64,000 bases of DNA from an uncultured Planctomycetales bacterium (lineage in GTDB: Bacteria; Omnitrophota; Gorgyraeia; Zapsychrales; JANLHA01): contig CAZAXH010000008.1 in NCBI GenBank assembly GCA_964489065.1, positions 64,130 through 128,129 on the forward strand, in the 5' to 3' direction. The notes beneath the pieces were generated by a model. That model was not told the origin of the DNA. It saw only the letters and a list, made by a program, of their open reading frames with translations, and did not search any database. The position numbers were made by a program, and so were the translations under genes. This document shows, in pieces, positions 2,864 to 32,076 of the stretch. Numbering within the stretch: the first letter of the stretch is position 1; every line of letters begins with the position of its first letter.

Positions 2864-3691
2864 ATGAATCAACAAAATTCAGCAGAAGAACAAAACCGGC
2901 GCCTTGACGAAAAGATGTCGAGAATTAAGCATAAATTGATCGTTATGAGCGGAAAAGGAGGCGTGGGAAAAACATCTGTCGCGGTTAATTTGTCCTATGG
3001 ATTAGCGTTGTCCGGACAGAGGGTAGGGCTCCTGGACGTTGACCTGCACGGCCCGAATATCGCCAAAATGCTGGGCATTGAAGATGCCGTCCTTTATGCC
3101 ACGGATTCCGGCATTGAGCCCGCGGAAGTTACCAGCCATCTCAAGGCCGTGAGCTTGGCTTTAACTGGAATAGACCGTAATCAGCCGATTATTTGGCGGG
3201 GACCGATGAAAGCATCGGCGATCCGGCAATTTTTAAGTGACGTCAACTGGGGATGCCTGGATTATTTAGTGATTGATTCCCCTCCCGGGACCGGAGACGA
3301 ACCTTTGAGTGTCTGCCAACTGATCCCGGAGATCACCGGGGCCCTTGTTGTTACGACCCCTCAGGATGTGGCTGTTTTAGACGCAAGGAAAAGCGTGCTT
3401 TTCGCAAAAGAATTGAATATCCCGGTCATCGGCGTGATTGAAAACATGAGCGGTTTTATATGCCCGCATTGCCGCCAAGAAATAGATATTTTTAAAAGGG
3501 GGGGCGGGCAAAGGATCGCGGCAGAATTCAAAGTCCCTTTCCTGGGGAGCATCCCTTTGGATCCGGGACTAGTACATTTTGCGGATAGCGGCAAGCCGTT
3601 TGTTTCTTCCCGAGATCAATCCGGGGCGGCTCCGGTTTTCCTTGAAATCATCAAAAGGATTGAAACGGCGCTCGTCAAAGAGCCGGATTAG
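2864..3691 (+). CDS. apbC: Mrp/NBP35 (ApbC) family Fe-S cluster carrier ATPase
   Basis: It has the deviant Walker A SGKGGVGKTSVAVNL, DSPPGTGDE, and a CPHC motif (FICPHCRQEIDIF) characteristic of Mrp/NBP35. Confidence 0.9.
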   Translation: MNQQNSAEEQNRRLDEKMSRIKHKLIVMSGKGGVGKTSVAVNLSYGLALSGQRVGLLDVDLHGPNIAKMLGIEDAVLYATDSGIEPAEVTSHLKAVSLALTGIDRNQPIIWRGPMKASAIRQFLSDVNWGCLDYLVIDSPPGTGDEPLSVCQLIPEITGALVVTTPQDVAVLDARKSVLFAKELNIPVIGVIENMSGFICPHCRQEIDIFKRGGGQRIAAEFKVPFLGSIPLDPGLVHFADSGKPFVSSRDQSGAAPVFLEIIKRIETALVKEPD

Positions 3692-6365: not shown

Positions 6366-7421
6366 ATGATAGAACATTCCAAACCGACATTGGGGCCGCG
6401 CGAGAGACAGGCGCTCCTGAAAACTCTGGCTTCCAATTATATTGCGGAAGGCCAGGAAGTGCATTGCTTTGAAAATGAGGTGGCCGCTTATATCGGTTCC
6501 CCGGGCGCTGTCGCAACGTCCACCGGAACTTTGGGGCTCCATCTCGCACTTCTTTGCCTTGATATGAAGCCAGGGGCCGAGATCATCATCCCAAGCTACA
6601 CTTGCCGCTCTGTTTTAAACGCGGTTTCCTACTGCCGGGCTAAACCGGTGGTATGTGACGTGGAGATAGAAAATTATAATTTGTCTTTTGCGGATGTAAA
6701 AAAAAAAATGACGGCTCGCACGCAAGCGATTATTGTGCCGCATATGTTCGGGTGTCCGGCGCCGATTGACCACTTTAAAACACTGGGGGTTCCTCTTATT
6801 GAAGACTGTGCGCACGCTTTGGGCACCGAATATAAAGGGCGGAAAGCGGGCTGTTGGGGCGATTTGGCCCTGCTTTCTTTTGAAGGTACAAAATATATTG
6901 TAACGGGGGAAGGGGGGATGGTCTTAGCCAACTCTGCCCGCATGCTCAAAAGGCTCCGCAAGTTGAAGGAGGGGGATTCTCCCGATCTTCCTGCGAAATA
7001 CACGTATCGTATGACGGATTTACAGGCCGCCGTGGGACGGGTTCAACTGAGCAGGCTGGAAGATTTTATTAAGAAACGCCGGAGCATCGCCCGGGTTTAT
7101 GATAAAGCCTTCGCATCTGTGACCGAAAGGCATCCGTTGGCGCACATTGACGGCCGCCATATTTACCAGCGTTACATGGTTCAGGTCCGGGGAAACATCC
7201 GTAAACTCATGGAAGATTGCCTTCGCCAGGGGATAAAAGTGAAGCAGCCGGTCAAACCTTATCCTCTGCACCGCTATCTGGGTCTTGCCGGAGGTTTATT
7301 CCCCAACACCGAGCGTATTATGCGTTCGGCGGTCTCTATCCCGATATATCCCTCGTTAACAAAAAAAGAGATTATGCATATAACACAAATACTGCCACCC
7401 TTATTCAAGCGCTATGCCTGA
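6366..7421 (+). CDS. DegT/DnrJ/EryC1/StrS-family PLP-dependent aminotransferase
   Basis: It has the typical N-terminus (KPTLGPRERQALLKTLASNYIAEGQEV..FE), a STGTLGLHLAL segment and the PLP-lysine context SFEGTKYIVTGEGG. Confidence 0.9.
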   Translation: MIEHSKPTLGPRERQALLKTLASNYIAEGQEVHCFENEVAAYIGSPGAVATSTGTLGLHLALLCLDMKPGAEIIIPSYTCRSVLNAVSYCRAKPVVCDVEIENYNLSFADVKKKMTARTQAIIVPHMFGCPAPIDHFKTLGVPLIEDCAHALGTEYKGRKAGCWGDLALLSFEGTKYIVTGEGGMVLANSARMLKRLRKLKEGDSPDLPAKYTYRMTDLQAAVGRVQLSRLEDFIKKRRSIARVYDKAFASVTERHPLAHIDGRHIYQRYMVQVRGNIRKLMEDCLRQGIKVKQPVKPYPLHRYLGLAGGLFPNTERIMRSAVSIPIYPSLTKKEIMHITQILPPLFKRYA

Positions 7422-8406
7422 TACTGAAAAAACAATTATCCCGGTTCCTGATTTGTCCCATGTTGACGCCGGCCCGTTCCCGCCCATGGTGGTTGTCGAA
7501 ATCACGAATGTCTGTAATCTGCAGTGCATCCACTGTCCGTTTTGCTATATATCAAAAGAGCCCGGGTATAAACCGTGCTATATGGCCTGGCCGCTTTATA
7601 AAAAGATCGTGGATGAGGTCGCCGGCCATCCCGGAACCATTTTTCGGCTTTTATGTGACGGAGAGCCCCTCTGCCATCCTCGGTTTATCGATATGGTCCG
7701 CTATGCTAAGACGCGGGGGGTAAGCCCGGTTAATTTTATCACCAACGGGCTTTTAATGGACGGGGCCCGGGCTGCGGCGGTGCTGGAAGCCGGAGTGGAG
7801 GCGGTTGAATTCAGCCTGGATGCGCTTAATAAGAACACATACGAGCGCATCCGGAAAGGTTCGAATTATGAAACGGTCATGCATCATGTCAAAGGCTTTA
7901 TCCGGCTGCGAGACACGTTAAAGGCTCCGACAAAAATTTTTGTCAGCATTATTGACCAGCCTGAAGCCGAAGCCGAGTTGGACGCTTTTGTCGCTTACTG
8001 GACCCCCCGTGTCGACCGGGTTATTACCCGGGCCTACACGTCCATACGGGGCCTTGTTGACCCGGCCAAGATCAAGACCGACCCGCAGATTAAACGCTGG
8101 CCCTGTCCTGACCTTTGGAGGCGTTCGTTTATCAATGTCGACGGTTTTGCCGAATTCTGCGTGGAAGATTGGCACGACCAATCCGTGGTCGGGGATATTA
8201 ACAAAACGACCCTTCAGGCCGTCTGGCAGGGTCCGGATTACGAACGGCTCCGGACCCTGCACAGGCAACGGAGGTTTCAGGAAATTCCTTATTGTGCGGG
8301 CTGTCTGGATTGGCGGGCCCGGGACTGGCATTATGATTATTTTTTGGCTTTGAGAGATACGTTAGGCTCAACGGCAGCCCCAGAGCGGCGGGAGGTGCGG
8401 CCATGA
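7414..8406 (+). CDS. Radical SAM enzyme with an abbreviated SPASM/twitch C-terminal domain
   Basis: The rSAM motif is ITNVCNLQCIHCPF (CxxxCxxC). The C-terminal part has CPDLWRRSFINVDGFAEFC (C-x12-G-x4-C) plus YCAGC. It overlaps both neighbours (7414/7421 and 8403/8406). Confidence 0.85.
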   Translation: MPDTEKTIIPVPDLSHVDAGPFPPMVVVEITNVCNLQCIHCPFCYISKEPGYKPCYMAWPLYKKIVDEVAGHPGTIFRLLCDGEPLCHPRFIDMVRYAKTRGVSPVNFITNGLLMDGARAAAVLEAGVEAVEFSLDALNKNTYERIRKGSNYETVMHHVKGFIRLRDTLKAPTKIFVSIIDQPEAEAELDAFVAYWTPRVDRVITRAYTSIRGLVDPAKIKTDPQIKRWPCPDLWRRSFINVDGFAEFCVEDWHDQSVVGDINKTTLQAVWQGPDYERLRTLHRQRRFQEIPYCAGCLDWRARDWHYDYFLALRDTLGSTAAPERREVRP

Positions 8407-9779
8407 CTTCACGGATTCTCCGAAAAACTCAAAGTGTCTGTCCCCGGTGTCTCGAGACCCTGGACACCTTTATCGTGGAAAAGAACGCAAAAATCGTTAT
8501 GAAAAAAACCTGCCCCCGGCATGGGCTGTTTGAAATCGTATTGTCTTCGACTCCGACTTACTACGCCGAACTCGAGGAGTATTATTTTTCCCTGGCGGAC
8601 ACTCGTTATGAAGTCCCGGAATATGAATTTTGGCCAACCTACCGGTGCAACGCTGACTGCACGATCTGCTGTTTCGGGCGGCAGAATTGGGAGATGGCGG
8701 GGCAGGACGCCTCGACGGGCGAAATTGAAAAACTGGCTAAAAACAGCAAGAAGCGTTTTTTTATTATTTCCGGGGGTGACCCGACCTGCCGGGATGACCT
8801 GGGTGATATTATAAGGACTTTTCGTAAACACGGGAAAGTCGTGACGATCAATACCAACGGCTTAAAATGCGCGGATTTAAACTACCTGAAGAAGTTGAAA
8901 AAGGCGGGCCTGGATCGACTGAATTTGCAATTTGACGGGTTTGACCCCAGATATTATCTGGCTCTGCGGCGTCAGGATTACCTGGACATCAAGCTGAAAG
9001 TTCTTGAAAACCTGCAGACTTTGGGGATTCAGACGACATTCAACGCGACCATCGCCCGGAATCTTAATGAAGGAGCGATCAAGGAATTAATGGATTTCGC
9101 CTCTTCGCACCCTTTTATCAACGGCGTTAATTTCTTTTCCATCTGTTTTCTGGGAGGGGCGAGGGACTGGGAACAAAGTTCATACATCATGCCGGATGAA
9201 ATCATTGACCTGCTCATCAGCCAAATAAGACCCGTTATTTCTAAAAAGAATGTTTTTGTTTTTCAAAAACTTCATCTGGCGGTCAAGTCGTTCCTGGCTC
9301 AGAAATGGTGCTTTTATAATCAGGTCTATCTTTTTGTCCGCAGAAACGGCTCTTTCGAGCCGATTGACCGCTTTCTCAACCTCGCTAAAGCCGAACCTTG
9401 GCTGGACCGTTACAGGGACAACTTCAAGACCAAGCCCTTCTGGGCGCGCGCCTGTCTGGGGATAGCCGTGGGGTGTCTCTTCCTGAAAAAAGAGTCCGTT
9501 ATTATTTTAAAGGAGATCCTTTTGAGGAGCGTGTCCTATTTTCTGAAGACGCGCCATTATCTTCGCGGCAGCCGGTTTTTCTCCGTGAGCTTTTCAACCG
9601 GCTGTGATCCTTATAAATTTGATTTTAACATTGTGAAACATTGCCAGAATGAAATCATCGCGGCCCGGGACCAGGACGGCGTGTTGACTCACTTAGGGAG
9701 CGACGGCCTGTATTGCATGGGGCTGGAGAAACGGTATTTGAGAAATAAACTCCAGAAAGAGGGGATGAGTTCTCGTTGA
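8403..9779 (+). CDS. Radical SAM protein with an N-terminal zinc-ribbon/rubredoxin-like knuckle (subtype A)
   Basis: The N-terminus is SVCPRCL-x19-CPRHG. The rSAM motif is YRCNADCTICCF, followed by SGGDPT. The conserved C-terminal Cys triad is WCFYNQ, CDPYKFD and HCQNEII, and there is a hydrophobic segment FWARACLGIAVGCLFL. Confidence 0.85.
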   Translation: MTSRILRKTQSVCPRCLETLDTFIVEKNAKIVMKKTCPRHGLFEIVLSSTPTYYAELEEYYFSLADTRYEVPEYEFWPTYRCNADCTICCFGRQNWEMAGQDASTGEIEKLAKNSKKRFFIISGGDPTCRDDLGDIIRTFRKHGKVVTINTNGLKCADLNYLKKLKKAGLDRLNLQFDGFDPRYYLALRRQDYLDIKLKVLENLQTLGIQTTFNATIARNLNEGAIKELMDFASSHPFINGVNFFSICFLGGARDWEQSSYIMPDEIIDLLISQIRPVISKKNVFVFQKLHLAVKSFLAQKWCFYNQVYLFVRRNGSFEPIDRFLNLAKAEPWLDRYRDNFKTKPFWARACLGIAVGCLFLKKESVIILKEILLRSVSYFLKTRHYLRGSRFFSVSFSTGCDPYKFDFNIVKHCQNEIIAARDQDGVLTHLGSDGLYCMGLEKRYLRNKLQKEGMSSR

Positions 9780-9780
9780 T

Positions 9781-11052
9781 ATGATGAAAGCCTACCCCCG
9801 ACATTCCGTTGACATTACCTGGCGCGATTACAAGCGCATGGTTTCGTTTTTCTTCACATCCCCGGCCCGGAGGAAAGAATTCCTTCCGGAATTCGAACAA
9901 CGCTTTGCGGAATATACCGGCACCCGCTTCGCCCTGTCCGTGCCGTCCGCCCGGGTGGGGCTTTATGCGATCCTGCAGTATTTTAATTTCCCTAAAGGGG
10001 CCGAAGTTATCATCACCCCGTTCACGCACCAGAGTATTTTTACGGTCCTGAAGACGTTCCGGCTTAAGCCGGTTTTCGTCGATATCGATGAAAAGACGCA
10101 CAATATCGACCCGCACCTGGTCAGGAAATCGGTTTCGGAGAAAACCCGTCTGCTGATTTTAACTCATATGTGGGGGCAGCCCTGCGACATGGCCGCGTTC
10201 ACCGCCTTGAAAAAAGAGTACGATCTGAAAATTATTGAAGATTGCGCCATGGCCGCCGGCGCGACTTACCAGGGGCGGAAAGTGGGGAGTTTCGTCGATG
10301 CCAGCATATTCAGCTTCGGGAAAGCTAAGGCCATTTGCGCTTTCGGCGGCGGGATGCTGTGCTGCCATGACGCCTCCATGAAGGATTTTATCTCCGGCCT
10401 GATCCGGGATTTTAAGCCCTCCCGGAGCCTGCCGCTGGCGGTTTCCGTCATTAATTCCGTGATCGCCAATATCCTGACCCGGCCCCGCTTTTTTTTCTTC
10501 TCCCTTTATCCGGTGATGCGGCTTTTCAACCTGCGGGATCCCTACAATCCGGTTGAACATAAAAAAGACTCCGAAGTCATCCTGGAGCAGATGCCGGAAG
10601 AATGGAAAGTCAAAATGTCGCCGTTTCAGGCCGCCCTGGGGCTGGAACAGCTCCGGAGCCTGGACGCCCGTAACCAGGCCCGGGCCCGTAACGCGCAGCT
10701 TTTGAACTTTTTGTTGGAGGGGACGCCGGGGATCAGTGTGCCCCGGCCGCAACCCGGAGGTAATCATATTTATCTTTACTACGCGGTTCATATACAGAAC
10801 GCCGCTTCTCTGGACGCCCTTAGGTTGAGCTTGCTGAAGCGTTCGGTCGACACGCAATTAAATGAGTTGACGACTCCCCGGCAGCTGCGTGTTTTCGGGG
10901 CGGACAGCCGGACGGTCCCTGTTTTTGAAACCATATCCGCGAATATCCTTGTCATCCCCAACGGGATTTATTTAAATGACCGGGATATCCGGCTTGTGGC
11001 GGAGGCGTTAAAACAGAGCCTGAGGTCCCTTCCGGGGAAGGGGGATGCATGA
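9781..11052 (+). CDS. DegT-like PLP aminotransferase-fold protein (long subtype with a hydrophobic insert)
   Basis: It has a DegT-like layout (ALSVPSARVGLYAIL, IEDCAMAAGATYQGRKVG, FSFGKAKAICAFGGG). A hydrophobic insertion (LPLAVSVINSVIANILTRPRFFFFSLYPVMRLF) follows the lysine motif. Confidence 0.75.
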   Translation: MMKAYPRHSVDITWRDYKRMVSFFFTSPARRKEFLPEFEQRFAEYTGTRFALSVPSARVGLYAILQYFNFPKGAEVIITPFTHQSIFTVLKTFRLKPVFVDIDEKTHNIDPHLVRKSVSEKTRLLILTHMWGQPCDMAAFTALKKEYDLKIIEDCAMAAGATYQGRKVGSFVDASIFSFGKAKAICAFGGGMLCCHDASMKDFISGLIRDFKPSRSLPLAVSVINSVIANILTRPRFFFFSLYPVMRLFNLRDPYNPVEHKKDSEVILEQMPEEWKVKMSPFQAALGLEQLRSLDARNQARARNAQLLNFLLEGTPGISVPRPQPGGNHIYLYYAVHIQNAASLDALRLSLLKRSVDTQLNELTTPRQLRVFGADSRTVPVFETISANILVIPNGIYLNDRDIRLVAEALKQSLRSLPGKGDA

Positions 11053-12431
11053 AAACGGCCCGGCCATCCCGCTCGATATTACGGACAACGGAAAGCGTCT
11101 GCCCGAAATGTTCCGCGCCCCTGCCCGCCAGTATTGTCGCGGATGAAAAAGGCGTGTTTATGGAGAAACGCTGCCCGCAGCATGGAGATTTTCGCGTGCG
11201 CCTGTCCGAAACCCCGGCCTTGTACGCCGAACTGGACGGGTTTTACTGTTCCCTGATGGGGCGGGCGCAACCTTGTTTTGATTATGAAATCTGGCCCACC
11301 CTGCGGTGCAATATGAATTGCGCGATATGTTTTTTCGGCTGTCCGCGGGAATCTTCCCGGGTTTTTGAGCCGACGCTCAACGCCATCGAACAGTTCGTCA
11401 GCCGGGACCCGCACCCGTTTTACTGCCTCTCCGGAGCGGAAGCGACTGTCCGGGATGATTTGCCGGATATCATCCGTATTTTAAAAAAGCACCGGAAAGT
11501 CGTGACGTTGAACACTAACGGAATGCGTTTCGAGGATGAATCTTATCTGTTAAAACTGAAGAACGCCGGGCTGGACCGGGTTATTTTGCAATGCGATGGT
11601 TTTGATCCCCGTGTTTCCCTGAAGATGAGGGGAGAGGATGCTGTCCCCCAACGGCAGCGTGTCTTGGCCCTCTTGGAAAAGCATCATATGCCGACCGCGC
11701 TCAGTTCCACGATCGCCCGGGGCCTCAACGAACATACGGTTTCGGAATTGCTGGATTACGCGCTGGCGCATCCTTTCATCAACGGGATCGCGTTTCTGTC
11801 CATCGCCTTTGACGGCGGGGCCCGGAACTGGAGCCAGGAGCGCTACATGATGCCGGATGAAGTGATCGACGTTGTCTGCCGTGTCCCCGGCTATAACGTA
11901 AAAAAAGAAAACGTGCACAGATTTCAAAAGCTGCATTTCGCCGTCAAGGCGTTCTTGAAGCAGCGCGCGTGTTTATATAATCAGCTTTATGTCCTGGTGC
12001 GCCGGCGGGGTTCCTTTGAGCCTATTGACGCTTTCATGAATCTCGCTAAAGCCGAGCCCTGGCTGGACCGTTACCGGCACGCTTACGCGGGGAAGAAACA
12101 CGGCCTGGCCGCTCTTTATCTGGGGCTGGCTTTGCTATGCCTGTGCTGCCATCGCCGGATTTTAGTCCTGTTCCGGGACCTTCTCGGCTCGGGGGTGTCT
12201 TATTTCTTCCGGACGTCACGATATCTAAGAACAGGCCGACTGCTTGCTTTAAGTTTTACGACCAGCTGCGACCCGTATAAGCTCGACAAGACAATCCTCC
12301 AGAATTGTCAGAATGAAATTATGGCCGCGGATCAAACACCGGACTCTTTACGCCCTATCGGAAGGGAAGGCGCCTATTTCGTGAACCTGGAAAAACATTA
12401 CGCTGAATCTCAACCCCGGGGGGAACCATGA
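11049..12431 (+). CDS. Radical SAM protein with an N-terminal zinc-ribbon knuckle (subtype A)
   Basis: It has SVCPKCS-x19-CPQHG, LRCNMNCAICFF, KAEPWLDRYR, CDPYKLD and NCQNEIM, plus the hydrophobic segment LAALYLGLALLCLCC. ATGA overlaps occur at both ends. Confidence 0.85.
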   Translation: MKTARPSRSILRTTESVCPKCSAPLPASIVADEKGVFMEKRCPQHGDFRVRLSETPALYAELDGFYCSLMGRAQPCFDYEIWPTLRCNMNCAICFFGCPRESSRVFEPTLNAIEQFVSRDPHPFYCLSGAEATVRDDLPDIIRILKKHRKVVTLNTNGMRFEDESYLLKLKNAGLDRVILQCDGFDPRVSLKMRGEDAVPQRQRVLALLEKHHMPTALSSTIARGLNEHTVSELLDYALAHPFINGIAFLSIAFDGGARNWSQERYMMPDEVIDVVCRVPGYNVKKENVHRFQKLHFAVKAFLKQRACLYNQLYVLVRRRGSFEPIDAFMNLAKAEPWLDRYRHAYAGKKHGLAALYLGLALLCLCCHRRILVLFRDLLGSGVSYFFRTSRYLRTGRLLALSFTTSCDPYKLDKTILQNCQNEIMAADQTPDSLRPIGREGAYFVNLEKHYAESQPRGEP

Positions 12432-15184
12432 AACCTGACACGATCATTCGCGCGACGCAAAGCGTTTGCCCTGTATGCCTGGAAGCCGTGCCCGCGACGG
12501 TGCTTGAGAAAGACGGCCGGGTTTACCTGACTAAGACCTGCCCCCGGCACGGGGCCTCCGAAGTCCTTCTGTCTGAGACCGCGGGTCTTTACAAAGAACT
12601 GGAAGGCTTTTTTTCCGCCGTTATGAACCCGTCTTACCGCATCCGCGAATATGAAATCTGGGTGACAATGCGCTGCAACACGTCTTGCACCATCTGTCAT
12701 CTCGGAGACAGCAACAGGATCGACATCCCGGACCCGAGCCTGGAAAAAATCGAGGAGTTTATCCTCCGGCATGACCAGCCGGCTTATATCCTTTCTGGGG
12801 GAGAGCCCACCTGCCGGGAAGACCTGCCGGATATTGTCCGCCTTTTTAAAAAGCACGGCAAGCATATCAGCCTGCACACGAACGGTCTGGCTTTAGGGAA
12901 CAAAGATTACATCCGTTCCCTGCAGGAAGCGGGGTTGGACCGGATCAATCTTCAATTTGACGGGTTCGCGCCGGACGCGTATAAAATTTTCCGGGGGAAA
13001 AATATCCTGGATAAGAAGCAACTGGCTTTAAAAAACCTGGAAGACCTGCGTCTGCCGACGGATTTGAATATCACGGTTGCCCGGGGTGTCAATGAGCCGG
13101 CCGTCATGGACAGCGTCCGGTTTGCCGTTAAACATCCTTTCATCTCTTCCGTTAACTTCTTCACGATCTGCTACCTGGGAGAAACGGCCCGATGGCCTTT
13201 AAAATATTTCCTTATGCCGGATACGATCGGAGACATCCTGGAAAAAGAAACAGGCGGCCGGATTTCCAAGCGCGGCATCATCCTTTTTCAGAAACTGCAC
13301 CTGGCCGTTAAATCCCTGCGTTCGGAGCGTTATTGCCTTTACAGCCAGATTTTTGTCCTGTTCCGAAAACGGGACGGGACGTATGACCCCATTGACCGCT
13401 ATCTTAACCTGGAACGGACGGACAGGCTTCTGAAACTTTATCAAAAAATGGCTCCCGGGCATCCTGTCCTCGCCAAAATAATTTTAATTTTAGGCCTGCC
13501 GTTTTTTATGATGCGCTGGTCCACGCTGGTGATCCTGAAAGAAATCTTGCGGACCGGATTTTCTTTTATGATCAACGAGGATTACGCTTTAAAAACCAGC
13601 CCGTTCCTTTATTTGAATTTTAATACGAGCTGTGATCCTTATAAAATCGATTACGGGTTCGTGCAGGATTGTCAGGATGAAATCATTTTTTATGACCGTC
13701 AGCAGGAACACTTGGTGAACCAGGGAGTGGACGGATTGCGCGCCATCGAGTTCGAGCGCCGCTACCGTAAGGCCGCCCCCAAGGAGACGATTCGCATTGA
13801 TCGGAAAATGGAAACATCCCAGAGGCATAAGCCTGCCGGCTTGGGCAACCGTGTCATTCGGGAGACAATGAGCGTGTGTCCTGTTTGCCTGGCCCCGCTC
13901 CCGGCCAGGATCCGGGCCGGAGCGGATGGCGTTTATCTGGAAAAGACATGCCCCCGGCACGGGGCCTTTCGCGTTTTTGTTTCGACTCATCCGGATGATT
14001 ATCAGGCCCTGTCCGACACTTATTTTTATTTTATCCCCGGGGCTCTGGAACAACGGGAATATTACGTCTGCGCGAGCACGCGGTGCAACATTTCGTGCCC
14101 GATTTGTTACCTGAATTATTGCCCTGAGCGGCCTCCTCTGACGCCCGAGGATATGAACAGCGCCGTGGGGGATAAACCGCAGGTGGAGCGCTTCACGTTT
14201 TCCCACGGCGAGCCCACGGTCTCTCCGCAACTGCCGGAGATGATCCGGGCTTTAAAGAAAGCCGGGAAATTTGTCAACATTCATACGAACGGCGTGAAAC
14301 TTGCCGATTATGCTTATACTCAATCCCTGAAACAGGCGGGGCTGGATCACGTGAGCCTCCAGTTTGACGGTTTTCGTGATGAAATTTATGAGACCCTGAG
14401 AGGCGGGAAGCTCTTGGAGGCCAAAACGCGCGCTTTGGATAATCTTAAGGCGCTGGAAATCCCCGTGACATTAAACGTGACGATCGCCGGGGGCGTTAAT
14501 GAAGACGAGTGGGGCAAAGTTTTTGATTACGTTGTCCGGAATGATTTTATTAAAGACGTGAGTTATATCACTTACTGCCATTACTCCCCTCAGGGGGATG
14601 CCGAGGGCCGGTCCATGATGCCGGACGACCTGGTGATACGCCTCGTGGAGCATTCTCAAGGGACGATTGAGAGGGAGGATGTGGTCTGTTTTCAGAAATT
14701 GTTTTACGCCTATTTAAGCGCCTTCCGCAAGAAAAAATGCTTTAACTATTATCATTATTGCGTTGTGCGGACATCCGGCGGATACCGTGGGATTGAGCGT
14801 TATCTGGATGTGCGGAAGATCGCCGGGAAGATTGACGCGTGCCGGGAGAGAGGACAAACGATGACGAAAACGTTGTTGCTGAAAATATTGTTAACCTCTC
14901 TGCGATGGGATAGTGTGGCGTTGATTCCTTACGGATTATTTTTGCTGTCGCGCGGGGGGTATCCCCCAAGCCCCGGGAAACTTTTAGTCGTGACGTTGGC
15001 CAGTATCTGCGACCCGTATAAATATGACGCAACGGTCGCCTTAAATTGCGGGCAGGGCATTATTACTCAAACCATGCAACATGAGAGTTACGGGACATAT
15101 ATTATCGAGGAGATGAAGCGTTCGCCGCGTCCCGACGCAGCTCGTGTCCTGCCTGACGCGTTTCCTCAAGGGGGTTCGGTATAA
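12428..15184 (+). CDS. Tandem fusion of two zinc-ribbon radical SAM modules (subtype A followed by subtype B), 918 aa
   Basis: Module 1 has SVCPVCL..CPRHG, MRCNTSCTICHL, CDPYKIDYGFVQDCQDEII. A linker (RYRKAAPKETIRIDRKMETSQRHKPAGLGNRVIRET) follows. Module 2 has SVCPVCL..CPRHG, TRCNISCPICYL, ICDPYKYDATVALNCGQGII. The reading frame is continuous in the supplied sequence. Confidence 0.85.
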   Translation: MKPDTIIRATQSVCPVCLEAVPATVLEKDGRVYLTKTCPRHGASEVLLSETAGLYKELEGFFSAVMNPSYRIREYEIWVTMRCNTSCTICHLGDSNRIDIPDPSLEKIEEFILRHDQPAYILSGGEPTCREDLPDIVRLFKKHGKHISLHTNGLALGNKDYIRSLQEAGLDRINLQFDGFAPDAYKIFRGKNILDKKQLALKNLEDLRLPTDLNITVARGVNEPAVMDSVRFAVKHPFISSVNFFTICYLGETARWPLKYFLMPDTIGDILEKETGGRISKRGIILFQKLHLAVKSLRSERYCLYSQIFVLFRKRDGTYDPIDRYLNLERTDRLLKLYQKMAPGHPVLAKIILILGLPFFMMRWSTLVILKEILRTGFSFMINEDYALKTSPFLYLNFNTSCDPYKIDYGFVQDCQDEIIFYDRQQEHLVNQGVDGLRAIEFERRYRKAAPKETIRIDRKMETSQRHKPAGLGNRVIRETMSVCPVCLAPLPARIRAGADGVYLEKTCPRHGAFRVFVSTHPDDYQALSDTYFYFIPGALEQREYYVCASTRCNISCPICYLNYCPERPPLTPEDMNSAVGDKPQVERFTFSHGEPTVSPQLPEMIRALKKAGKFVNIHTNGVKLADYAYTQSLKQAGLDHVSLQFDGFRDEIYETLRGGKLLEAKTRALDNLKALEIPVTLNVTIAGGVNEDEWGKVFDYVVRNDFIKDVSYITYCHYSPQGDAEGRSMMPDDLVIRLVEHSQGTIEREDVVCFQKLFYAYLSAFRKKKCFNYYHYCVVRTSGGYRGIERYLDVRKIAGKIDACRERGQTMTKTLLLKILLTSLRWDSVALIPYGLFLLSRGGYPPSPGKLLVVTLASICDPYKYDATVALNCGQGIITQTMQHESYGTYIIEEMKRSPRPDAARVLPDAFPQGGSV

Positions 15185-15188
15185 AATT

Positions 15189-16751
15189 ATGAAGATCGCC
15201 TTTATTAATGATTCCTGTGAACGGCTGGGTGTTGAATATATTTCAGCCGTGCTTAAACAGCATGGGCACACCGTCAAATTGTTCGCCGATCCGCAGCTCT
15301 TTGATGACGAAAATTTTACAATCGCGCCTCTGGCCAGGTTTTTTGACCGGCAGGAAGACCTGCTGGCCCAAATTCAGGCGTTCCAGCCGGATCTGATCGG
15401 GTTCTCGGTCGTGACGGACTTTTATCAGTGGGCCTGCCGCCTCGCCAGGCGTATCAAAGCGGTGATGGATGTCCCGGTGCTTTTCGGAGGGATTCACGCG
15501 ACATCGGTTCCCGAAAAGGTCCTGCAGCAGGATTGCGTGGATATGGTCTGCCGGGGGGAAGGGGAGTTCGCCCTTTTGGACCTCGCCGACAGCATGGAGA
15601 AGGGCCTCCGGGATTACACGATCCCCAACATTTGGTTTAAAAAAGACGGTGCGATCATCAGGAATGATGCGCGTCCCCTGATCGAGGACCTGGATGCGCT
15701 GCCGTTCGCGGATAAAGACCTTTTTTATGAGGCCAGCCCCCATTTTTCCCGTTGCTATTTCCTGATGACCAACCGCGGCTGCGCTTACGCCTGCAGTTAT
15801 TGCTGTAATTCATTCCTGAAAAAATTTTATCATGCGAAAGGCCGGTACCTGCGTTTCCGCAGCGCCGGAAACGTGATCCGGGAGTTGACCCTGGCCAAAC
15901 AGAAATACGGCATTAAAATGGTCCGTATCCACGATGATGACTTCCTCACGCACGACGTGCCCTGGTTCGAGGAGTTCGCGGAAGAATACTCCCGGCATAT
16001 ACAGGCCCCGTTCGCATGCTTCACGCACCCCAACAGCGTGACGGAAACCAAAGCCCGCCTGCTGAAGAAAGCAGGGTGCCACGATATCGAAGTGGGGGTC
16101 CAGTCCATCTCCTCGGACACGCGTTACCGGATTCTTAACCGCCGCGTTTCGGATGAGCAATTGGTCCGCGCTCTGCAGATATTAAAAGACGCGGGCATCA
16201 AGGTGATCACGGATAATATCCTGGGGCTTCCTCACCAGGGGCGGGAGGAGCTTCTGGATCTCATTAAATTTTATAATAAAAACAGGATCATGAAGATTTA
16301 CTGTTTCGGCTTCCGGCATTATCCGGCCACGGATATCGTCGAATATTCCAGGGACGAGAAACTGCTGAGCGCACAGGATGTCGAGAACCTGGAGAACGGG
16401 ATCAATGTCAAGACCTTCATTCAGAGCGGGGATAATTTGAGCCGTGAGGACCGGCAACTGCAGACATTTTTTGCGTTTCTGCTCTACCTGCCGGAGACGG
16501 TCAATAATTACATCCTTGAGAAAAAGCTGTACCGTTATTTTATCCCGCTCCCGTATTATGTCCTGGTTATCTTTTCCAATTGGCTGCGCATCCCGTACCG
16601 GTACAACTGGGCGCTGCATATTACCGTGTGCCGGTACCGGGTTTATGCTTATAAAACGATAAAGAAAAAGTTTACCTCGGGTATCAGGGCGTTGCTTAAA
16701 AAGTTCCGCCCTTCGGCCTTTAACACGGCGCGGGGGACGCCTGTCCGGTGA
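15189..16751 (+). CDS. B12-binding (class B) radical SAM enzyme, array paralog 1
   Basis: The ATG at 15189 gives MKIAFINDSCERLGVEYISAVLKQHGH, matching the paralog N-termini. The track ORF starting at 15144 overlaps the upstream gene. It has GGIHATSVPE and CRGEGE (B12-binding domain) and NRGCAYACSYC (CxxxCxxC). Confidence 0.9.
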   Translation: MKIAFINDSCERLGVEYISAVLKQHGHTVKLFADPQLFDDENFTIAPLARFFDRQEDLLAQIQAFQPDLIGFSVVTDFYQWACRLARRIKAVMDVPVLFGGIHATSVPEKVLQQDCVDMVCRGEGEFALLDLADSMEKGLRDYTIPNIWFKKDGAIIRNDARPLIEDLDALPFADKDLFYEASPHFSRCYFLMTNRGCAYACSYCCNSFLKKFYHAKGRYLRFRSAGNVIRELTLAKQKYGIKMVRIHDDDFLTHDVPWFEEFAEEYSRHIQAPFACFTHPNSVTETKARLLKKAGCHDIEVGVQSISSDTRYRILNRRVSDEQLVRALQILKDAGIKVITDNILGLPHQGREELLDLIKFYNKNRIMKIYCFGFRHYPATDIVEYSRDEKLLSAQDVENLENGINVKTFIQSGDNLSREDRQLQTFFAFLLYLPETVNNYILEKKLYRYFIPLPYYVLVIFSNWLRIPYRYNWALHITVCRYRVYAYKTIKKKFTSGIRALLKKFRPSAFNTARGTPVR

Positions 16752-16761
16752 AACAAGATAA

Positions 16762-18114
16762 ATGTCTATGAAAACTTATTTCATAAGCGCGTCGACATTC
16801 TGCATGGAACGGATGCTGGACTGCCAGCAGGTTTCCGATTATCTCAAGTTGAACGGCTGGCGTCCGGTGACGCGGGTTCGGCAGGCCGGGCTGGTCATCA
16901 TAAGCACCTGCTCGTTCGGGCGCGAAGAGGACGCGAGCTCCCTGGATTATATCCGTTATTTTCTGCGGAAGAAATCGCCCCGGGCCCGTTTCCTGATTAT
17001 GGGGTGCCTTCCGGTGATCAACCCCGACTTATTATCTTCTTATCAGGATATTCCCGTGCTCACACCGACCACTTTATCCCGGATCGAAACCGTGGCCCCT
17101 CCGGAGAGGACCCGGTTCGCGGATGTCCCGGAACCCAATAAAATTTTGGCGACAGAAGTCACGCACAGTGTTTTTCTGAAAAAAGCGTTAAGTTTCCGTT
17201 CCGCGTTCAGGCAGGGCCTCCGGTGTTTTAAGCCTGATGTAGCGACGTTGCGGCGGGGGCTGTCCTTCCTGAAAGCCGCGGTGCGTTATGTCCCGGTTAT
17301 GAAGGCGCACATTAACCCGTTCTTATCCTGTAACCGGAACGGATTTTATTATTTGAGATTATCCAAGGGCTGCCTGGGGAACTGCAGTTACTGCGCTAAA
17401 AGACATTCGACAGGGACCTTGCAGAGCAAATCCACAACCTCTATCCTCGATGAATTCCGCGCCGGGCTCAGGGCCGGGGAAAAGCAGTTTTATTTATTGA
17501 CGGAAGACGTCGGCTGTTACGGGGCCGACCGGCACACAGATATCGTAGCCTTGTTGAAAAATCTTTTTGAAGCCGGGGAGAGGCATGATTTCCGGATTGT
17601 CCTGTCCAATTTCAATGCCCGGTGGTTCGTGCGGTATTATGAGGACCTGGAGCCGGTCTTGATCCGGAATCAGAACAAAATTTTGTATCTGCAAATACCG
17701 ATCCAGTCAGGCAGCACCCGCATCCTGGAATTCATGAACCGGCATTACACCATTGAAGACGTGGAATCCCGGCTCCTGACTTTAAGAAAGAACGCCCCGG
17801 CGGTCGCCTTCACGACCGATATCATCGCCGGATTCCCGGGGGAAACGGATGAGGATTTTGAACTCACCAAGAAGTTTTTGTCGAAAATACGTTTTCAGCA
17901 CGTTGATATTTTCGCTTACGAAAAACGCCCCGGCACTAAAGCGGGAACGCTTCCCGGGGACGTCCCCCCGGAGATCATCGAAGCCCGTGTCCTGCAGTTG
18001 GCCCGGCTTCAGAACAGCTATCACCGGGGCCCCATGCTTGCTAAAAAAGTGCTGGATGTTATCCGGGAAAACCTGCAGCGCTACCGGAATAAAGCCGTGA
18101 CCCGTACGCCATGA
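16762..18114 (+). CDS. MiaB/RimO-like methylthiotransferase-type radical SAM enzyme lacking a TRAM domain
   Basis: The N-terminal UPF0004-like domain has three spaced Cys (STFCMERMLDC.., IISTCSF, IMGCLP). The rSAM motif is SKGCLGNCSYCAKRH, and GFPGETDEDF is present. The C-terminus ends without a recognisable TRAM barrel. Confidence 0.75.
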   Translation: MSMKTYFISASTFCMERMLDCQQVSDYLKLNGWRPVTRVRQAGLVIISTCSFGREEDASSLDYIRYFLRKKSPRARFLIMGCLPVINPDLLSSYQDIPVLTPTTLSRIETVAPPERTRFADVPEPNKILATEVTHSVFLKKALSFRSAFRQGLRCFKPDVATLRRGLSFLKAAVRYVPVMKAHINPFLSCNRNGFYYLRLSKGCLGNCSYCAKRHSTGTLQSKSTTSILDEFRAGLRAGEKQFYLLTEDVGCYGADRHTDIVALLKNLFEAGERHDFRIVLSNFNARWFVRYYEDLEPVLIRNQNKILYLQIPIQSGSTRILEFMNRHYTIEDVESRLLTLRKNAPAVAFTTDIIAGFPGETDEDFELTKKFLSKIRFQHVDIFAYEKRPGTKAGTLPGDVPPEIIEARVLQLARLQNSYHRGPMLAKKVLDVIRENLQRYRNKAVTRTP

Positions 18115-19625
18115 CAAAACAAGGCCTGAGAATTGCTTTTGTGAATGATTCCTGCGAGCATTTGGGGGTTGAATATATCTCCGCCGTGCTGAAATCCGCA
18201 GGGCATGATACCCGTCTATTCGTTGACCCGCTTTTGTTTGATGATGAATTTATCACCGTTAAGGGGCTCAGCCGCCGCTTTGATTACACTAAGAAGATTA
18301 TCCGGGACCTCAGGGCTTATCAGCCGGATCTGGTCAGCCTGTCGGTGGTCTCAAGCTTCTATCCCTGGGCCGGCCGGATGGCCCGGGCTATAAAGGCGGA
18401 GATGGACGTCCCCGTTATCATGGGCGGTATTCATCCGACATCCGTTCCCGAAAGTGTCATCCAGAACGACGCCGTGGATATGGTCTGCCTGGGGGAAGGG
18501 GAATACCCCCTGCTGGAACTTGCCGACAGTATGGCCCGGGGAAGTATCGACGACACCGTAAAAAACATCTGGTTTAAAAAGAACGGGAAGATCCTGCGCA
18601 ACCCTTTGCGGCCGCTTATCGACGATTTAGATGCCCTCCCGTTTCCCGATAAAGACCTTTATTATTCCGTCAGCCCGCATTTTTCAAAAAGTTATTATAT
18701 CGCGACCAGCAGAGGCTGCCCCAACGCCTGCAGTTATTGCTGTAATTCTTACCTGCATTCTTTGTACAAGGGCCTGGGCGCGCCGCGGCGGTCGCGCAGC
18801 GTCCGGAATGTCATTGAAGAATTAATGTGGGCCCAAAACCGTTACCGGATCGATCCGGTTTTCTTCCTGGATGACTGTTTCGGGACCGATTTGGGATGGT
18901 TAAAAAAATTCGCGACGGAGTACCGAGAAAAAGTCGGCGTTAAGTTTTACTGCATGATGTTCCCCGCACCCCAGATGGAAGAGGCGGTTGAATATCTCGC
19001 GCAGGCCGGCTGCGGGGAAATCGAGATCGGCGTCCAGTCCTGGGATGAAGATGTCAGGCGCCGGATATTCAACCGGCGCGTTTCGAACGACACGATGATC
19101 CGGACGATGAAATTGATCAGGAAGGCGGGGATCAATCTCGTGACAGGCGATATCCTCGGTTATCCCGGGCAGAAAGAGGAGCATATTTTAAAAACCGCGG
19201 AGATTTACACAGACATAAAACCCAGCCGGACGTACGCTTTTATCCTGAAATATTTTCCCAAAACGGAGATCACGGAACAGGCGCTGCAGAACGGATGTCT
19301 GAGTCCGGCGGATCACGAAAAAATATTGGACGGCCATTACGGCAAATACTTATCGAAAGACGGCTCCATGACAGAGAGGGATGTCATGCAATATCTGCTT
19401 CTATTTTTGCTGGTGCGTATTTTACCGGTCTCTTGGGCCAAGACAGTAATCCGGAAAAAATTTTATAAGCGTTTCCCGGTTTTGTTCACGCCGGCCGTGA
19501 TTTCAATCCTGAATAATTTTTCGACATCCACCTTTGAATCGCAGGTCAACCGGAAAAGCGCCCTGGCACGGTACACTTTTTTCATTAAACGATTGTTTTC
19601 TAAATCCAAAGCAGGTGCGCGATGA
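18111..19625 (+). CDS. B12-binding (class B) radical SAM enzyme, array paralog 2
   Basis: It has LRIAFVNDSCEHLGVEYISAVLKSAGH, GGIHPTSVPE, CLGEGE and SRGCPNACSYC. The ATGA overlap with the upstream gene is at 18111/18114. Confidence 0.9.
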   Translation: MTKQGLRIAFVNDSCEHLGVEYISAVLKSAGHDTRLFVDPLLFDDEFITVKGLSRRFDYTKKIIRDLRAYQPDLVSLSVVSSFYPWAGRMARAIKAEMDVPVIMGGIHPTSVPESVIQNDAVDMVCLGEGEYPLLELADSMARGSIDDTVKNIWFKKNGKILRNPLRPLIDDLDALPFPDKDLYYSVSPHFSKSYYIATSRGCPNACSYCCNSYLHSLYKGLGAPRRSRSVRNVIEELMWAQNRYRIDPVFFLDDCFGTDLGWLKKFATEYREKVGVKFYCMMFPAPQMEEAVEYLAQAGCGEIEIGVQSWDEDVRRRIFNRRVSNDTMIRTMKLIRKAGINLVTGDILGYPGQKEEHILKTAEIYTDIKPSRTYAFILKYFPKTEITEQALQNGCLSPADHEKILDGHYGKYLSKDGSMTERDVMQYLLLFLLVRILPVSWAKTVIRKKFYKRFPVLFTPAVISILNNFSTSTFESQVNRKSALARYTFFIKRLFSKSKAGAR

Positions 19626-21136
19626 AAATCGCTTTTGTCAACGATTCATCCCAGCAGCTGGGTATACAATATATTTCGGCCGTCCTTAAACAGCACGGCC
19701 ATGACGTGAAGCTGTTCATGGACCCCCAGTTATTCGATGACGATGTGATCCGGGTCCCCCGATTGAGCCGGTGGCTTGATTCCAAGAAAGAGCTTGTCCG
19801 GCGTCTGAAAGCCTATCAGCCCGACTTGGTCGGGATCTCCGTGGTGACGGATTTTTACCAGTGGGCCCGCCGGATCGCCACGATGATCAAGGAAGAAATG
19901 GATGTCCCGATTATCGCCGGCGGAATCCACCCGACATCCGTTCCCGAGAGAGTGCTGAAAAACGATTGTTTTGACATGGTGTGTCTGGGAGAAGGGGAGT
20001 TTGCTTTGTCGGAACTGGCCGACAATATGCAGAAGGGAACGCCTGACTACACGATCCGTAATATCTGGTTCAAACGGGACGGCCAAATCATAAAAAATGA
20101 ACTCCGGCCGCTTATCGATGACCTGGACGACCTGCCCTTTCCGGATACGGACTTGTATTATTCCGCCAGTCCTCATTTTAAAAGGACCGGCCTGTACGTT
20201 ACCATGACTTCTCGCGGCTGTCCGAACGCCTGCACGTACTGCTGTTTTTCTTACCTGCAGGGGCTTTACAAAGGGAAAGGGAAAAGGATCCGGCAGCGCA
20301 GCGTCGGCAATGTCATGAGTGAATTGCGGACCAACAAGGAAAAATACAACATCAAGTTCGTCGCGTTTATGGACAATTGTTTCGGGTATGATTCGAAATG
20401 GTTGCGGGAATTTGCGCCCGTTTATCAGGCGGAGATCGGGATTAAATTCTGGTGCATCATGCATCCCAAGGATGTCACGGAAGAAACCCTGAAGCATTTG
20501 AAGCGGGCCGGGTGCCACACGATTGACATGGGGGTGCAGTCGTGGAACGAGCGCATCCGCAAGGAGGTCCTGCACCGGGATGTCGGGAATGACACGATGG
20601 CCCGCGCGATCCTCCTGGTCAAGAATGCGGGGATCGAAATCATGACCGACAGCATTTTCGACCTTCCCGGGCAAACGGAAGACGACATCCTGGAAAGTGC
20701 CCGCCGTTATGCGGAAATCCGGCCCAAGCGGATATATTTTTACATGCTCCGGCATTACCCCAACACCCTGATTACCCGGATGGCGAAGGAGGATAATCTT
20801 CTGACCTCATCCCGGTATGAAGAAGTGATGGACGGGGTGAACGTCACGTCTTTCACCATCGGAGGCGACAAGGTCAATAAAGACATGATCCGGTTTCAGA
20901 TCCTGTTTTATCTGATCGATTTGATCCCCAAACGGATGAGCTTGTTTATCATCCGCAGGAGACTGCACCGGTATTTCCCTCTCATGTTCGGCCCCGCCAT
21001 GATCGTGATCCTGCGTAATTTGCTGGCCTTTGACATGAACGCCCGGCTTCAGCGCGCCTGGGCCTTTAACCGTTACGCGCATTTTATCTGGGAGAAAATC
21101 CGTCCCGTCCGAAAATGCCGGGGACATCAGCCATGA
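19622..21136 (+). CDS. B12-binding (class B) radical SAM enzyme, array paralog 3
   Basis: It has MKIAFVNDSSQQLGIQYISAVLKQHGH, GGIHPTSVPE, CLGEGE and SRGCPNACTYC. The ATGA overlap is at 19622/19625. Confidence 0.9.
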   Translation: MKIAFVNDSSQQLGIQYISAVLKQHGHDVKLFMDPQLFDDDVIRVPRLSRWLDSKKELVRRLKAYQPDLVGISVVTDFYQWARRIATMIKEEMDVPIIAGGIHPTSVPERVLKNDCFDMVCLGEGEFALSELADNMQKGTPDYTIRNIWFKRDGQIIKNELRPLIDDLDDLPFPDTDLYYSASPHFKRTGLYVTMTSRGCPNACTYCCFSYLQGLYKGKGKRIRQRSVGNVMSELRTNKEKYNIKFVAFMDNCFGYDSKWLREFAPVYQAEIGIKFWCIMHPKDVTEETLKHLKRAGCHTIDMGVQSWNERIRKEVLHRDVGNDTMARAILLVKNAGIEIMTDSIFDLPGQTEDDILESARRYAEIRPKRIYFYMLRHYPNTLITRMAKEDNLLTSSRYEEVMDGVNVTSFTIGGDKVNKDMIRFQILFYLIDLIPKRMSLFIIRRRLHRYFPLMFGPAMIVILRNLLAFDMNARLQRAWAFNRYAHFIWEKIRPVRKCRGHQP

Positions 21137-23980: not shown

Positions 23981-24013
23981 ACCAGGGGGATGAAGGTCGG
24001 CAAGGATAAGGTT

Positions 24014-28640: not shown

Positions 28641-28680
28641 ACTCTGTTTTGTGCCTTTGTTAAGAGAGGAAAAAGGTTTT

Positions 28681-30291: not shown

Positions 30292-30304
30292 CACAAAAAC
30301 TCAT

Positions 30305-31366: not shown

Positions 31367-32076
31367 ATACCAGTATTTCCTTGGTTGTCCCTGTTTATAA
31401 TGAAGCGGAAATCATCGCCGACACGTTGGCGGCCTTTACCCGGGAACTATCGGGTGTCTGCAGGGATTTTGAAATTATCGTTGTGGATGACGGGAGCACG
31501 GATGACACCGCGGCCATATTACGCCGGATTTCAGAAAATAACGCGCGTATCAAAGTTGTCTATAACCCGGTCAATGAAGGGAGCGGAGCCAGCGTCTGGA
31601 AAGGGTTCAAGAGCGCCGGCAAAGAACTGATCATCAGTAATTTCGCGGACCGCCCTTTTGCCCTTTCGGATTTAGAGGGGGTTATCCGGGCGGCCGACCT
31701 GAACAGCGCTGATTTTATCGTCGTGGTCAGACAGGACCGGAGCGCCAACACGGGCTATAGGAAAATAACGTCCCTGACGAATTACTGGCTTATCCGATTC
31801 CTGTTTAAGGTGAAGATATCTGATTTCCAGTTTGTCCAGGTCTATAAACGCCCGGTCATTCAGGGCATCCCTATCCGTTCCCGGGAGACGTTTGTCCCGC
31901 CAGAACTGATGATCAGGCTTCTGGACAAAGGCTTTCAGTATCGGGAAGTCATCCGGCCGTTTCATAAAAGACCGGGAGGGCAGTCGAAATGCGGCCGCCC
32001 GGGGAAAGTGTTGAGAAGTATGCTGGAAATCTTTAACTTTTGGATATATTGGGTCATCCTCAAAAAGCGAGATTGA
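31360..32076 (+). CDS. GT2-family polyprenyl-phosphate glycosyltransferase (DPM1/ArnC/CsbB-like)
   Basis: The ATG at 31360 follows a GGAGG RBS. It has SLVVPVYNEAEII, IIVVDDGSTDDT and a small soluble size, typical of polyprenol-P sugar synthases. It overlaps the upstream stop. Confidence 0.85.
   Translation: MLNTSISLVVPVYNEAEIIADTLAAFTRELSGVCRDFEIIVVDDGSTDDTAAILRRISENNARIKVVYNPVNEGSGASVWKGFKSAGKELIISNFADRPFALSDLEGVIRAADLNSADFIVVVRQDRSANTGYRKITSLTNYWLIRFLFKVKISDFQFVQVYKRPVIQGIPIRSRETFVPPELMIRLLDKGFQYREVIRPFHKRPGGQSKCGRPGKVLRSMLEIFNFWIYWVILKKRD

Follow-up and report, generated by a model that had tools for sequence, protein, structure and literature searches.

Do the radical S-adenosylmethionine (rSAM) enzymes encoded side by side in an Omnitrophota genome act on a substrate embedded in the membrane? 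This question is raised by a 64,000-nucleotide stretch of contig CAZAXH010000008.1 (the window), in which positions 6366-32076 of the forward strand form one tight operon of overlapping or abutting genes. Among its products are five rSAM modules with a zinc ribbon (Z1-Z5) and seven class-B rSAM paralogs of the cobalamin type (B1-B7). An earlier note on this DNA had pointed to a hydrophobic stretch in every zinc-ribbon module and to a hydrophobic and basic tail in every class-B paralog, and had proposed a membrane-embedded substrate from these features. The six hydrophobic peptides and the seven basic motifs that it quoted were all found where it had placed them. Our analysis indicated that Z1-Z5 are best explained as a bacterial, Omnitrophota-centred subfamily of the Tes/GDGT-MAS superfamily. 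The best explanation overall, which we consider on balance probable, is that these Tes-like enzymes act on lipid through a hydrophobic hairpin serving as a portal, and that the class-B tail is a substrate-binding cap.

Zinc-ribbon modules and their relation to Tes

The zinc-ribbon modules and the segment flagged in the first of them are located as follows.

8403-9779, forward strand: Z1, a zinc-ribbon (rubredoxin-like) rSAM protein of the Tes/GDGT-MAS superfamily (Pfam PF23545 and PF04055).

9435-9545, forward strand: hydrophobic helical hairpin of Z1 (residues 345-381), the flagged segment (DSSP on the AlphaFold model).

11049-12431, forward strand: Z2, a zinc-ribbon rSAM paralog with its hairpin at about nt 12099-12212 (Pfam, NCBIfam, Z-family profile).

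12428-15184, forward strand: Z3-Z4, fused zinc-ribbon modules whose hairpins lie near nt 13463-13576 and 14867-14971 (the Z-family profile matches twice at full length).

22637-23980, forward strand: Z5, a zinc-ribbon rSAM paralog with its hairpin at about nt 23678-23791 (Pfam, NCBIfam, and Kyte-Doolittle hydropathy over a 19-residue window, KD19).

Pfam assigned the "HMPTM" zinc ribbon (PF23545) to all five modules, together with the Radical_SAM domain (PF04055). The name HMPTM stems from an old pterin-methylase annotation that was corrected for MJ0619 by the GDGT-MAS paper, in which the enzyme (7TOL, 7TOM) was crystallised with two bound lipids; Tes/GDGT-MAS couples lipid tails through C-C bonds. 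The NCBIfam model for Tes (NF045702, cut-off 450 bits) scored 144 bits for Z1, 143 for Z2, 153 for Z5 and 266 for the Z3-Z4 fusion, so the equivalog threshold was not reached. The best NCBIfam model for the Z modules was TrsS (NF045646), with 153 bits for Z1 and 150-182 bits for single modules, also under its cut-off of 490 bits; TrsS has no known function and hence gives no mechanistic guidance.

When Z1 was compared with the sequences of the PDB, 7tol was the sole strong match (E 3e-39), and a profile of 57 Z homologs matched the same entry over residues 8-428 (E 1e-90). The BLASTP alignment of Z1 with Tes was confined to the first 327 residues, at 29% identity (E 2e-43). The AlphaFold model of Z1, built with the 57 homologs, had a predicted local distance difference test score (pLDDT) of 94.9 and a predicted template modelling score of 0.92. 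Foldseek aligned it with 7tom over 490 columns, C-terminal domain included (TM-score 0.77, E 2e-31); the next best structure, MoaA, matched in the barrel only (0.38), leaving 7tom as the sole whole-chain neighbour. Both sequence homology and fold therefore identify the Z modules as distant bacterial homologs of Tes/GDGT-MAS. The description of these proteins as otherwise soluble-type rSAM enzymes does not suit them, since lipids are already known as substrates of their superfamily.

Metal-cluster sites were compared between 40 archaeal Tes and 57 Z sequences, with the MJ0619 numbering checked against the GDGT-MAS paper. In the rubredoxin-like C-X2-C...C-X2-H site of the Z family, the cysteines C13, C16 and C37 never vary and 55 of the 57 sequences have H40, these residues corresponding to C9, C12, C33 and H36 of MJ0619. 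The CX3CX2C motif of the SAM cluster and the partial TIM barrel are likewise retained, with invariant C82, C86 and C89 equivalent to MJ0619 C98, C102 and C105. The cysteines of the [4Fe-4S]N cluster (C73, C77 and C80, joined there by a His) are invariant in all 40 archaeal Tes, whereas the insert that carries them is a gap in 55-56 of the 57 Z sequences, every module of the window included.

The C-terminal cluster site is also different. Invariant among the archaeal Tes are C338, C455, C470 and M439; the labile Met439 is a ligand of the [4Fe-4S]C cluster according to the GDGT-MAS paper, and the three cysteines are, judged from the alignment, likely to be its Cys ligands. The Z family keeps C303 (equivalent to C338) and C414 (equivalent to C455), but lacks C470, has Ser, Ala or Thr at the position of M439, and is also missing Tes Y459. 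A new, near-invariant cysteine of the Z family, C401, stands at the position of Tes M442, three residues past that of the labile Met439. Replacement of Met439 by Asp402 was considered and rejected, because in the alignment D402 corresponds to Tes D443 and is conserved in both groups. Since three cysteines remain (C303, C401 and C414), a C-terminal cluster with a different ligation is plausible in the Z enzymes.

The deletion of the [4Fe-4S]N insert and the rewiring of the C-terminal cluster site set the Z proteins apart as what, on these alignments, is a distinct subfamily rather than a group of Tes orthologs. The two also differ in gene number, with four to five paralogs per operon in bacteria for the Z family and one gene in archaea for Tes.

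The hydrophobic hairpin

The flagged peptide of Z1, FWARACLGIAVGCLFL, covers positions 9438-9485 (residues 346-361). In the AlphaFold model, DSSP assigned to this region a near-apolar helix (residues 345-359), a KKES turn and an amphipathic helix (365-380), and the resulting hairpin sits inside the C-terminal cluster domain. The stretch had been described as lying roughly 100 residues before the C-terminus of every zinc-ribbon module, and it was indeed found 78-101 residues ahead of the module end, in one block of alignment columns in all five modules. In each of them it is the most hydrophobic 19-residue window (KD19 1.18-1.99): 1.78 in Z1, 1.99 in Z3, 1.36 in Z4 and 1.18 in Z5, the weakest, with Z1-Z3 at 1.6 or above. 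Among the 57 Z homologs it is the hydropathy maximum of the protein in 50, with a mean of 1.75 and values of at least 1.6 in 35.

The hairpin occupies the same place in Tes and is much greasier in the Z family. Its KD19 was 1.64 in Z against 0.77 in the 40 archaeal Tes (p 4e-14), charged residues numbered about 1 per 15 against 2.5, and it was the protein-wide hydropathy maximum in just 9 of the 40 Tes. By profile and MAFFT alignment, helix 1 corresponds to MJ0619 residues 382-397 and helix 2 to about 402-425. Residues 376-381 and 398-401 of MJ0619 are unmodelled in both crystal structures, and these loops flank exactly the counterpart of helix 1 on both sides, which makes it a mobile element in the single relative of solved structure.

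Within the Z alignment, hydrophobic columns had a higher entropy in the hairpin than elsewhere (2.53 versus 1.54 bits, p 1e-7), an excess to which alignment noise could contribute. The hairpin thus keeps its hydrophobicity and not the identity of its residues, a pattern typical of lipid-facing surfaces. Helix 1 is apolar at nearly every position; small residues line one face at intervals of three to four positions and bulky apolar ones make up the rest, which suggests that one face packs on protein; helix 2 is classically amphipathic in its family-averaged hydropathy.

Such segments might be read as true transmembrane helices, making the rSAM enzymes integral bitopic proteins. This would agree with KD19 values of at least 1.6 in Z1-Z3, B2, B3 and 35 of the 57 Z homologs, and with the one transmembrane helix that Phyre2 was reported to predict in two of four Tes homologs. 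Published predictions for Tes are ambiguous, however, as TMHMM found no transmembrane segment, and its discoverers hypothesised at least an association with the membrane. In the Z modules, a membrane-spanning helix of some 19 residues or more with a favourable insertion energy was not found: helix 1 has just 15 residues, after which the chain passes at once through a charged turn into a helix that runs back, and the summed Hessa insertion free energy of the segments is positive (+1.5 to +7.4 kcal/mol). Real membrane proteins of the window reach KD19 values of 2.2-3.0, and some of its soluble proteins reach 1.7-1.9. A single span would also put C401 and C414 across the membrane from the SAM cluster. 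For these reasons the model makes a transmembrane span unlikely, and we regard integral bitopic enzymes as the least likely of the alternatives, with very little probability.

A different relation to the membrane is suggested by the relatives of the Z modules. The two lipids of GDGT-MAS lie in hydrophobic pockets that are both adjoined by the C-terminal cluster domain, and one of these pockets consists of several amphipathic helices. By analogy, the hairpin may be a wall of such a pocket. Mss of Thermotoga and Thermoanaerobacter, an rSAM enzyme that couples lipid tails and is just remotely related to Tes, was compared by its published description: it has conserved hydrophobic regions near the C-terminus, which were modelled beside the rSAM core as a tail-binding site, and Mss homologs were reported in metagenome-assembled genomes (MAGs) of Omnitrophota.

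In the lipid-portal explanation, the Z enzymes would most likely abstract hydrogen from a membrane-lipid tail or from some other long-chain substrate linked to a lipid. The hairpin would form the hydrophobic lip of the lipid pocket and, as a re-entrant-type anchor of the kind found in monotopic membrane enzymes, insert partly into the leaflet on the cytoplasmic side. Over this lip, a lipid tail could leave the bilayer and reach the site of the 5'-deoxyadenosyl radical and the C-terminal cluster, with the Fe-S clusters and the SAM site staying cytoplasmic. The genomic context speaks for this explanation: the last genes of the operon encode polytopic membrane proteins and an ArnC-like GT2, those for an ArnT-like GT-C and a YfhO-family protein lie beyond them, and the synteny is kept in other Omnitrophota genomes.

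Several observations weigh against this explanation. The hairpin helices are confidently modelled (pLDDT 84-97), a result that would suit a buried element just as well, and their hydropathy is borderline, with positive Hessa sums and similar KD19 values in soluble proteins of the window. Hydrophobic-moment analysis, which had been proposed as a check, failed to separate the segments from background: by HeliQuest discrimination factor and moment, background regions scored equally high and net charge dominated. The GDGT-MAS paper names no pocket-lining helices and gives no membrane-binding data. DegT aminotransferases and glycosyltransferases, typical of sugar pathways, abound in the operon. Furthermore, chemistry and substrate of the Z enzymes may differ from those of Tes, since they stay below the Tes equivalog cut-off, the [4Fe-4S]N cluster is absent and the ligands of the C-terminal cluster are other ones.

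It is conceivable that the hydrophobic stretches are ordinary buried elements, namely the core of the C-terminal domain in the Z modules and a barrel cap in the class-B paralogs, and that the substrates are soluble, for example nucleotide sugars or cyclitols supplied by the DegT and glycosyltransferase neighbours. The high pLDDT of both regions, KD19 values of 1.2-2.0 that overlap those of soluble window proteins, the positive Hessa sums and the nearby genes (three DegT as well as WbqC, GT2 and AsnB-like genes) would fit such an arrangement. However, the sole close structural relative of the Z modules is a lipid synthase with bound lipids, the hairpin is markedly greasier than in Tes, and its residue identities are free to vary while hydrophobicity is kept, unlike other hydrophobic columns. 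The flexible loops that flank the counterpart helix in GDGT-MAS are also unlike a core element, and the GT2 is of the polyprenyl-phosphate type, so that the sugar branch would be membrane-linked too. We consider buried elements serving soluble substrates an unlikely explanation, though a serious one.

The hairpins might also be protein-protein interfaces that assemble the Z paralogs, and perhaps the B paralogs, into a hetero-oligomeric machine. The fusion of Z3 and Z4 here, which are separate in a related locus (L003), is a Rosetta-stone hint of module interaction, and the gene order of the paralogs is strictly conserved; against this, residues at an interface tend to be conserved together, and the hairpin columns rank with the most variable ones. 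An assembly role appears improbable as the explanation of the hairpins, but it is compatible with a lipid portal and both could coexist.

Class-B paralogs and their tails

The class-B genes and the positions of their tail motifs are listed below.

15144-16751, forward strand: B1, a class-B (B12-binding) rSAM protein; tail at about 16440-16748, KKLYRYFI at 16521-16544 (Pfam, profile).

18111-19625, forward strand: B2, class-B rSAM; tail at nt 19374-19619, KKFYKRFP at 19455-19478 (AlphaFold, column conservation).

19622-21136, forward strand: B3, class-B rSAM; RRLHRYFP at 20957-20980 (motif, profile).

21115-22653, forward strand: B4, class-B rSAM; KRLYRYFP at 22474-22497 (motif, profile).

23990-25540, forward strand: B5, class-B rSAM; KKWYRYFP at 25373-25396 (motif, profile).

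25537-27012, forward strand: B6, class-B rSAM; KRIYHYFS at 26866-26889 (motif, profile).

27030-28640, forward strand: B7, class-B rSAM; KKAYRFMP at 28359-28382 (motif, profile).

All seven proteins match the class-B family profile with E < 1e-214 and have C203, C207 and C210 invariant; in B1 and B2 Pfam identified the B12-binding domain PF02310 together with PF04055. The listed GTG start of B1 (15144) overlaps the end of Z3-Z4, and the alignment of the paralogs begins at the Met at 15189 (MKIAFINDS), 5 nt past the Z3-Z4 stop; the real start is, by this alignment, probably ATG 15189.

The tail motif is a real feature of the family. Its core, [KR][KR][LFWIA][YH][RKH][YRF][FM][PIS], occurs exactly seven times in the six-frame translation, always in B1-B7, against 0.018 expected. 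Among 54 family members, P439 is conserved in all, K449 in 44, Y452 in 51 and P456 in 45. The earlier note had the proteins end with this motif, which holds for its presence but not for its place: between it and the C-terminus are 40-85 residues, which include another hydrophobic helix and then a long basic one. The nine-position form in which the motif had been written, with a leading Lys or Arg, fits three of the seven. B1-B7 thus share a conserved helical module at the C-terminal end, in which a hydrophobic helix and the invariant Pro precede KKxYRYFP, and another hydrophobic helix and a basic one come after it. Neither Pfam nor NCBIfam models cover this tail, and a search with residues 415-504 of B2 against 1.84 billion representatives returned only nine matches, the long ones being TPR-repeat proteins (a spurious helical-repeat similarity) and the short ones fragments.

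In the AlphaFold model of B2 (pLDDT 91), the tail forms helices at residues 422-437, 440-448, 461-471 and 475-503. Class-B hydropathy is uneven, with KD19 of at least 1.6 just in B2 and B3. The first tail helix of B2 has pLDDT 83-96 and a fairly conserved sequence, with Pro439 invariant, which favours the buried-element alternative for this family. In the model, the tail looks like a packed barrel cap rather than a free anchor, and the module probably caps the barrel as a substrate-binding element. It may be, as a conjecture from composition, that KKxYRYFP, rich in Lys, Arg, Tyr and Phe, and the basic terminal helix add an interfacial aromatic and basic contact with the membrane.

In combining a B12-binding domain with an rSAM barrel, B1-B7 resemble the cobalamin-dependent rSAM enzymes of lipids, namely GrsA/GrsB, HpnJ, HpnP/HpnR and the B12-rSAM of ladderane clusters; in published AlphaFold models of Grs, lipid substrate binding is predicted for a helix at the C-terminus. 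The top NCBIfam models were HpnJ (TIGR03471), which gave 111 bits with both B1 and B2, and rSAM_ladder_B12 (TIGR04072), which gave 100 bits with B1 and 98 with B2; these scores stay far below the equivalog cut-offs of 578 and 360 bits, respectively, and the tail falls outside all models. The fold of B2 is nearest to TsrM, CysS, MgmA and TokK (TM-scores 0.63-0.69), with OxsB also matching, and all of these solved structures act on non-lipid substrates. The membrane-embedded substrate proposed for the whole array is thus supported for the Z modules by their Tes family membership, their fold and a hairpin within the domain that adjoins the lipid pockets, whereas for the class-B paralogs only composition speaks for it.

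Operon, neighbouring genes and related loci

The operon begins with a DegT gene, an rSAM/SPASM gene, Z1, a second DegT gene, Z2, the Z3-Z4 fusion, B1 and a MiaB-like rSAM gene, and continues with B2, B3, B4, Z5, B5, B6, B7, two genes for polytopic membrane proteins and an ArnC-like GT2 gene. The genes other than those of the Z and B families are as follows.

6366-8406, forward strand: DegT-family aminotransferase and then rSAM/SPASM enzyme at the operon head, in overlapping genes (Pfam, NCBIfam).

9781-11052, forward strand: second DegT-family aminotransferase, with a conserved hydrophobic insertion of about 60 residues (approximately residues 205-275) (Pfam).

16762-18114, forward strand: MiaB/RimO-like rSAM protein (UPF0004 and rSAM domains) inside the array (Pfam, NCBIfam).

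28609-32076, forward strand: membrane partners at the operon end, namely a polytopic membrane protein, an LPG_synthase_TM-family protein and an ArnC-like GT2 (Pfam, NCBIfam, hydropathy).

The pair at the operon head recalls BtrN/BtrS of 2-deoxystreptamine biosynthesis, in which an rSAM dehydrogenase reportedly forms a ketone that the aminotransferase then aminates. Two of the three DegT aminotransferases, DegT2 (about 10393-10606) and DegT3 (about 41510-41730) and not DegT1, carry the hydrophobic, aromatic-rich insertion of about 60 residues (for example SVINSVIANILTRPRFFFFSLYPVMRLF), placed directly after the strand that aligns with the position of the family's pyridoxal phosphate-binding lysine. 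Its sequence is well conserved in orthologs from loci L003, L004, L006, L008 and L009, and it may be another membrane- or lipid-facing element.

Downstream of the operon are genes for four class-B-like rSAM proteins, another rSAM protein, the third DegT aminotransferase, the ArnT-like GT-C, the YfhO-family protein and an AsnB-like amidotransferase; the WbqC gene is also among the sugar-type neighbours, which include the three DegT, the GT2 and the AsnB-like genes. By our own count, about 19 rSAM domains lie within roughly 43 kb (6366-49071): five Tes-like, seven class-B, four further class-B-like, one MiaB-like and two SPASM or other. One of the class-B-like proteins, X4 (36259-37674, reverse strand), is divergent and without a Pfam B12-binding match; its C-terminal end, FFRFVPNVLIMAGMLVLAM, is strongly hydrophobic (KD19 1.91), and its gene adjoins that of a PaaK/FlxY-like acyl-CoA ligase.

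Family models place the ArnC-like GT2 among the polyprenyl-phosphate glycosyltransferases. It adjoins the LPG_synthase_TM-family protein and forms, with the YfhO-family protein and the ArnT/PMT_2-type GT-C, an Arn-like set spread over 30194-32076, 32915-34765 and 44621-45982, which suggests that a sugar is placed on a lipid carrier and transferred to a periplasmic acceptor. Just upstream of the operon (2864-3691) is a gene for a ParA-like P-loop protein with a CPHC motif, which we take to be similar to Fe-S carriers of the Mrp/ApbC type; if this identity were confirmed, a helper role in cluster loading would be plausible. Maturation of RiPPs, peptides that are made by the ribosome and modified afterwards, was considered as the function of the operon and is unlikely, as 6366-34765 is packed nearly end to end and leaves no room for a precursor gene, small open reading frames (ORFs) not having been explicitly searched.

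A bolder proposal, which we put forward tentatively and with more doubt than confidence, is that the operon builds a heavily remodelled, so far unknown membrane lipid, and that the hyper-hydrophobic hairpins are the membrane portals of a new bacterial tetraether-synthase-like branch. Four to five Tes-like C-C couplers, at least seven cobalamin rSAM enzymes, the MiaB-like and SPASM enzymes, the insert-bearing DegT and the polyprenyl-type glycosyltransferases would be the enzymes for such a lipid. What they make could be a membrane-spanning lipid that is multiply cross-linked, methylated or cyclised and whose head group is an aminated glycosyl or cyclitol unit.

The array is conserved beyond this genome. 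Almost all close homologs that bear source names come from Candidatus Omnitrophota or Omnitrophica, and the order Z, Z, Z, Z, B, MiaB-like, B, B, B is repeated in other Omnitrophota assemblies, including a complete chromosome of 3.36 Mb; the MiaB-like gene keeps its position in loci L001, L003, L004 and L008. Seven related loci were found with a 16-sequence alignment, a sample in which taxonomic breadth is under-represented. Two loci with the array, L006 and L008 (CAYRUB010000010.1 and CAZAYU010000002.1), are labelled Planctomycetales/Planctomycetia and all others Omnitrophota, which points either to an occurrence of the array in Planctomycetota as well or to mistaken MAG labels. Z3 and Z4 form a single ORF of 918 residues here (12428-15184) and two separate, slightly overlapping ORFs in L003 (5567-6970 and 6873-8324), which reflects either a real gene fusion, with a hint of paired modules, or an assembly or frameshift difference.

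Hydrophobic C-terminal regions as marks of lipid-acting rSAM enzymes are already published for Tes and Mss. New are a subfamily without the N-cluster, with a rewired C-cluster and a hyper-hydrophobic hairpin, and its conserved multi-paralog arrays in Omnitrophota. No paper describing the array in Omnitrophota was found in the literature searched; published Tes surveys used thresholds of E < 1e-50 with >20-30% identity, and the position of the Z family below them (29%, E 2e-43) probably explains why the family is missing from that literature.

The description of Tes, Mss, Gms and Grs has recently explained how membrane-spanning lipids are synthesized, while the bacterial makers of branched tetraethers and related biomarkers are still open. 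Should the Z enzymes act on a membrane lipid, the lipids made by Omnitrophota would be novel in their chemistry, and the hairpin would be a simple sequence marker for lipid-acting rSAM enzymes. If, moreover, the operon does build a remodelled membrane lipid, orphan sedimentary biomarkers could derive from it as a source not recognised until now.

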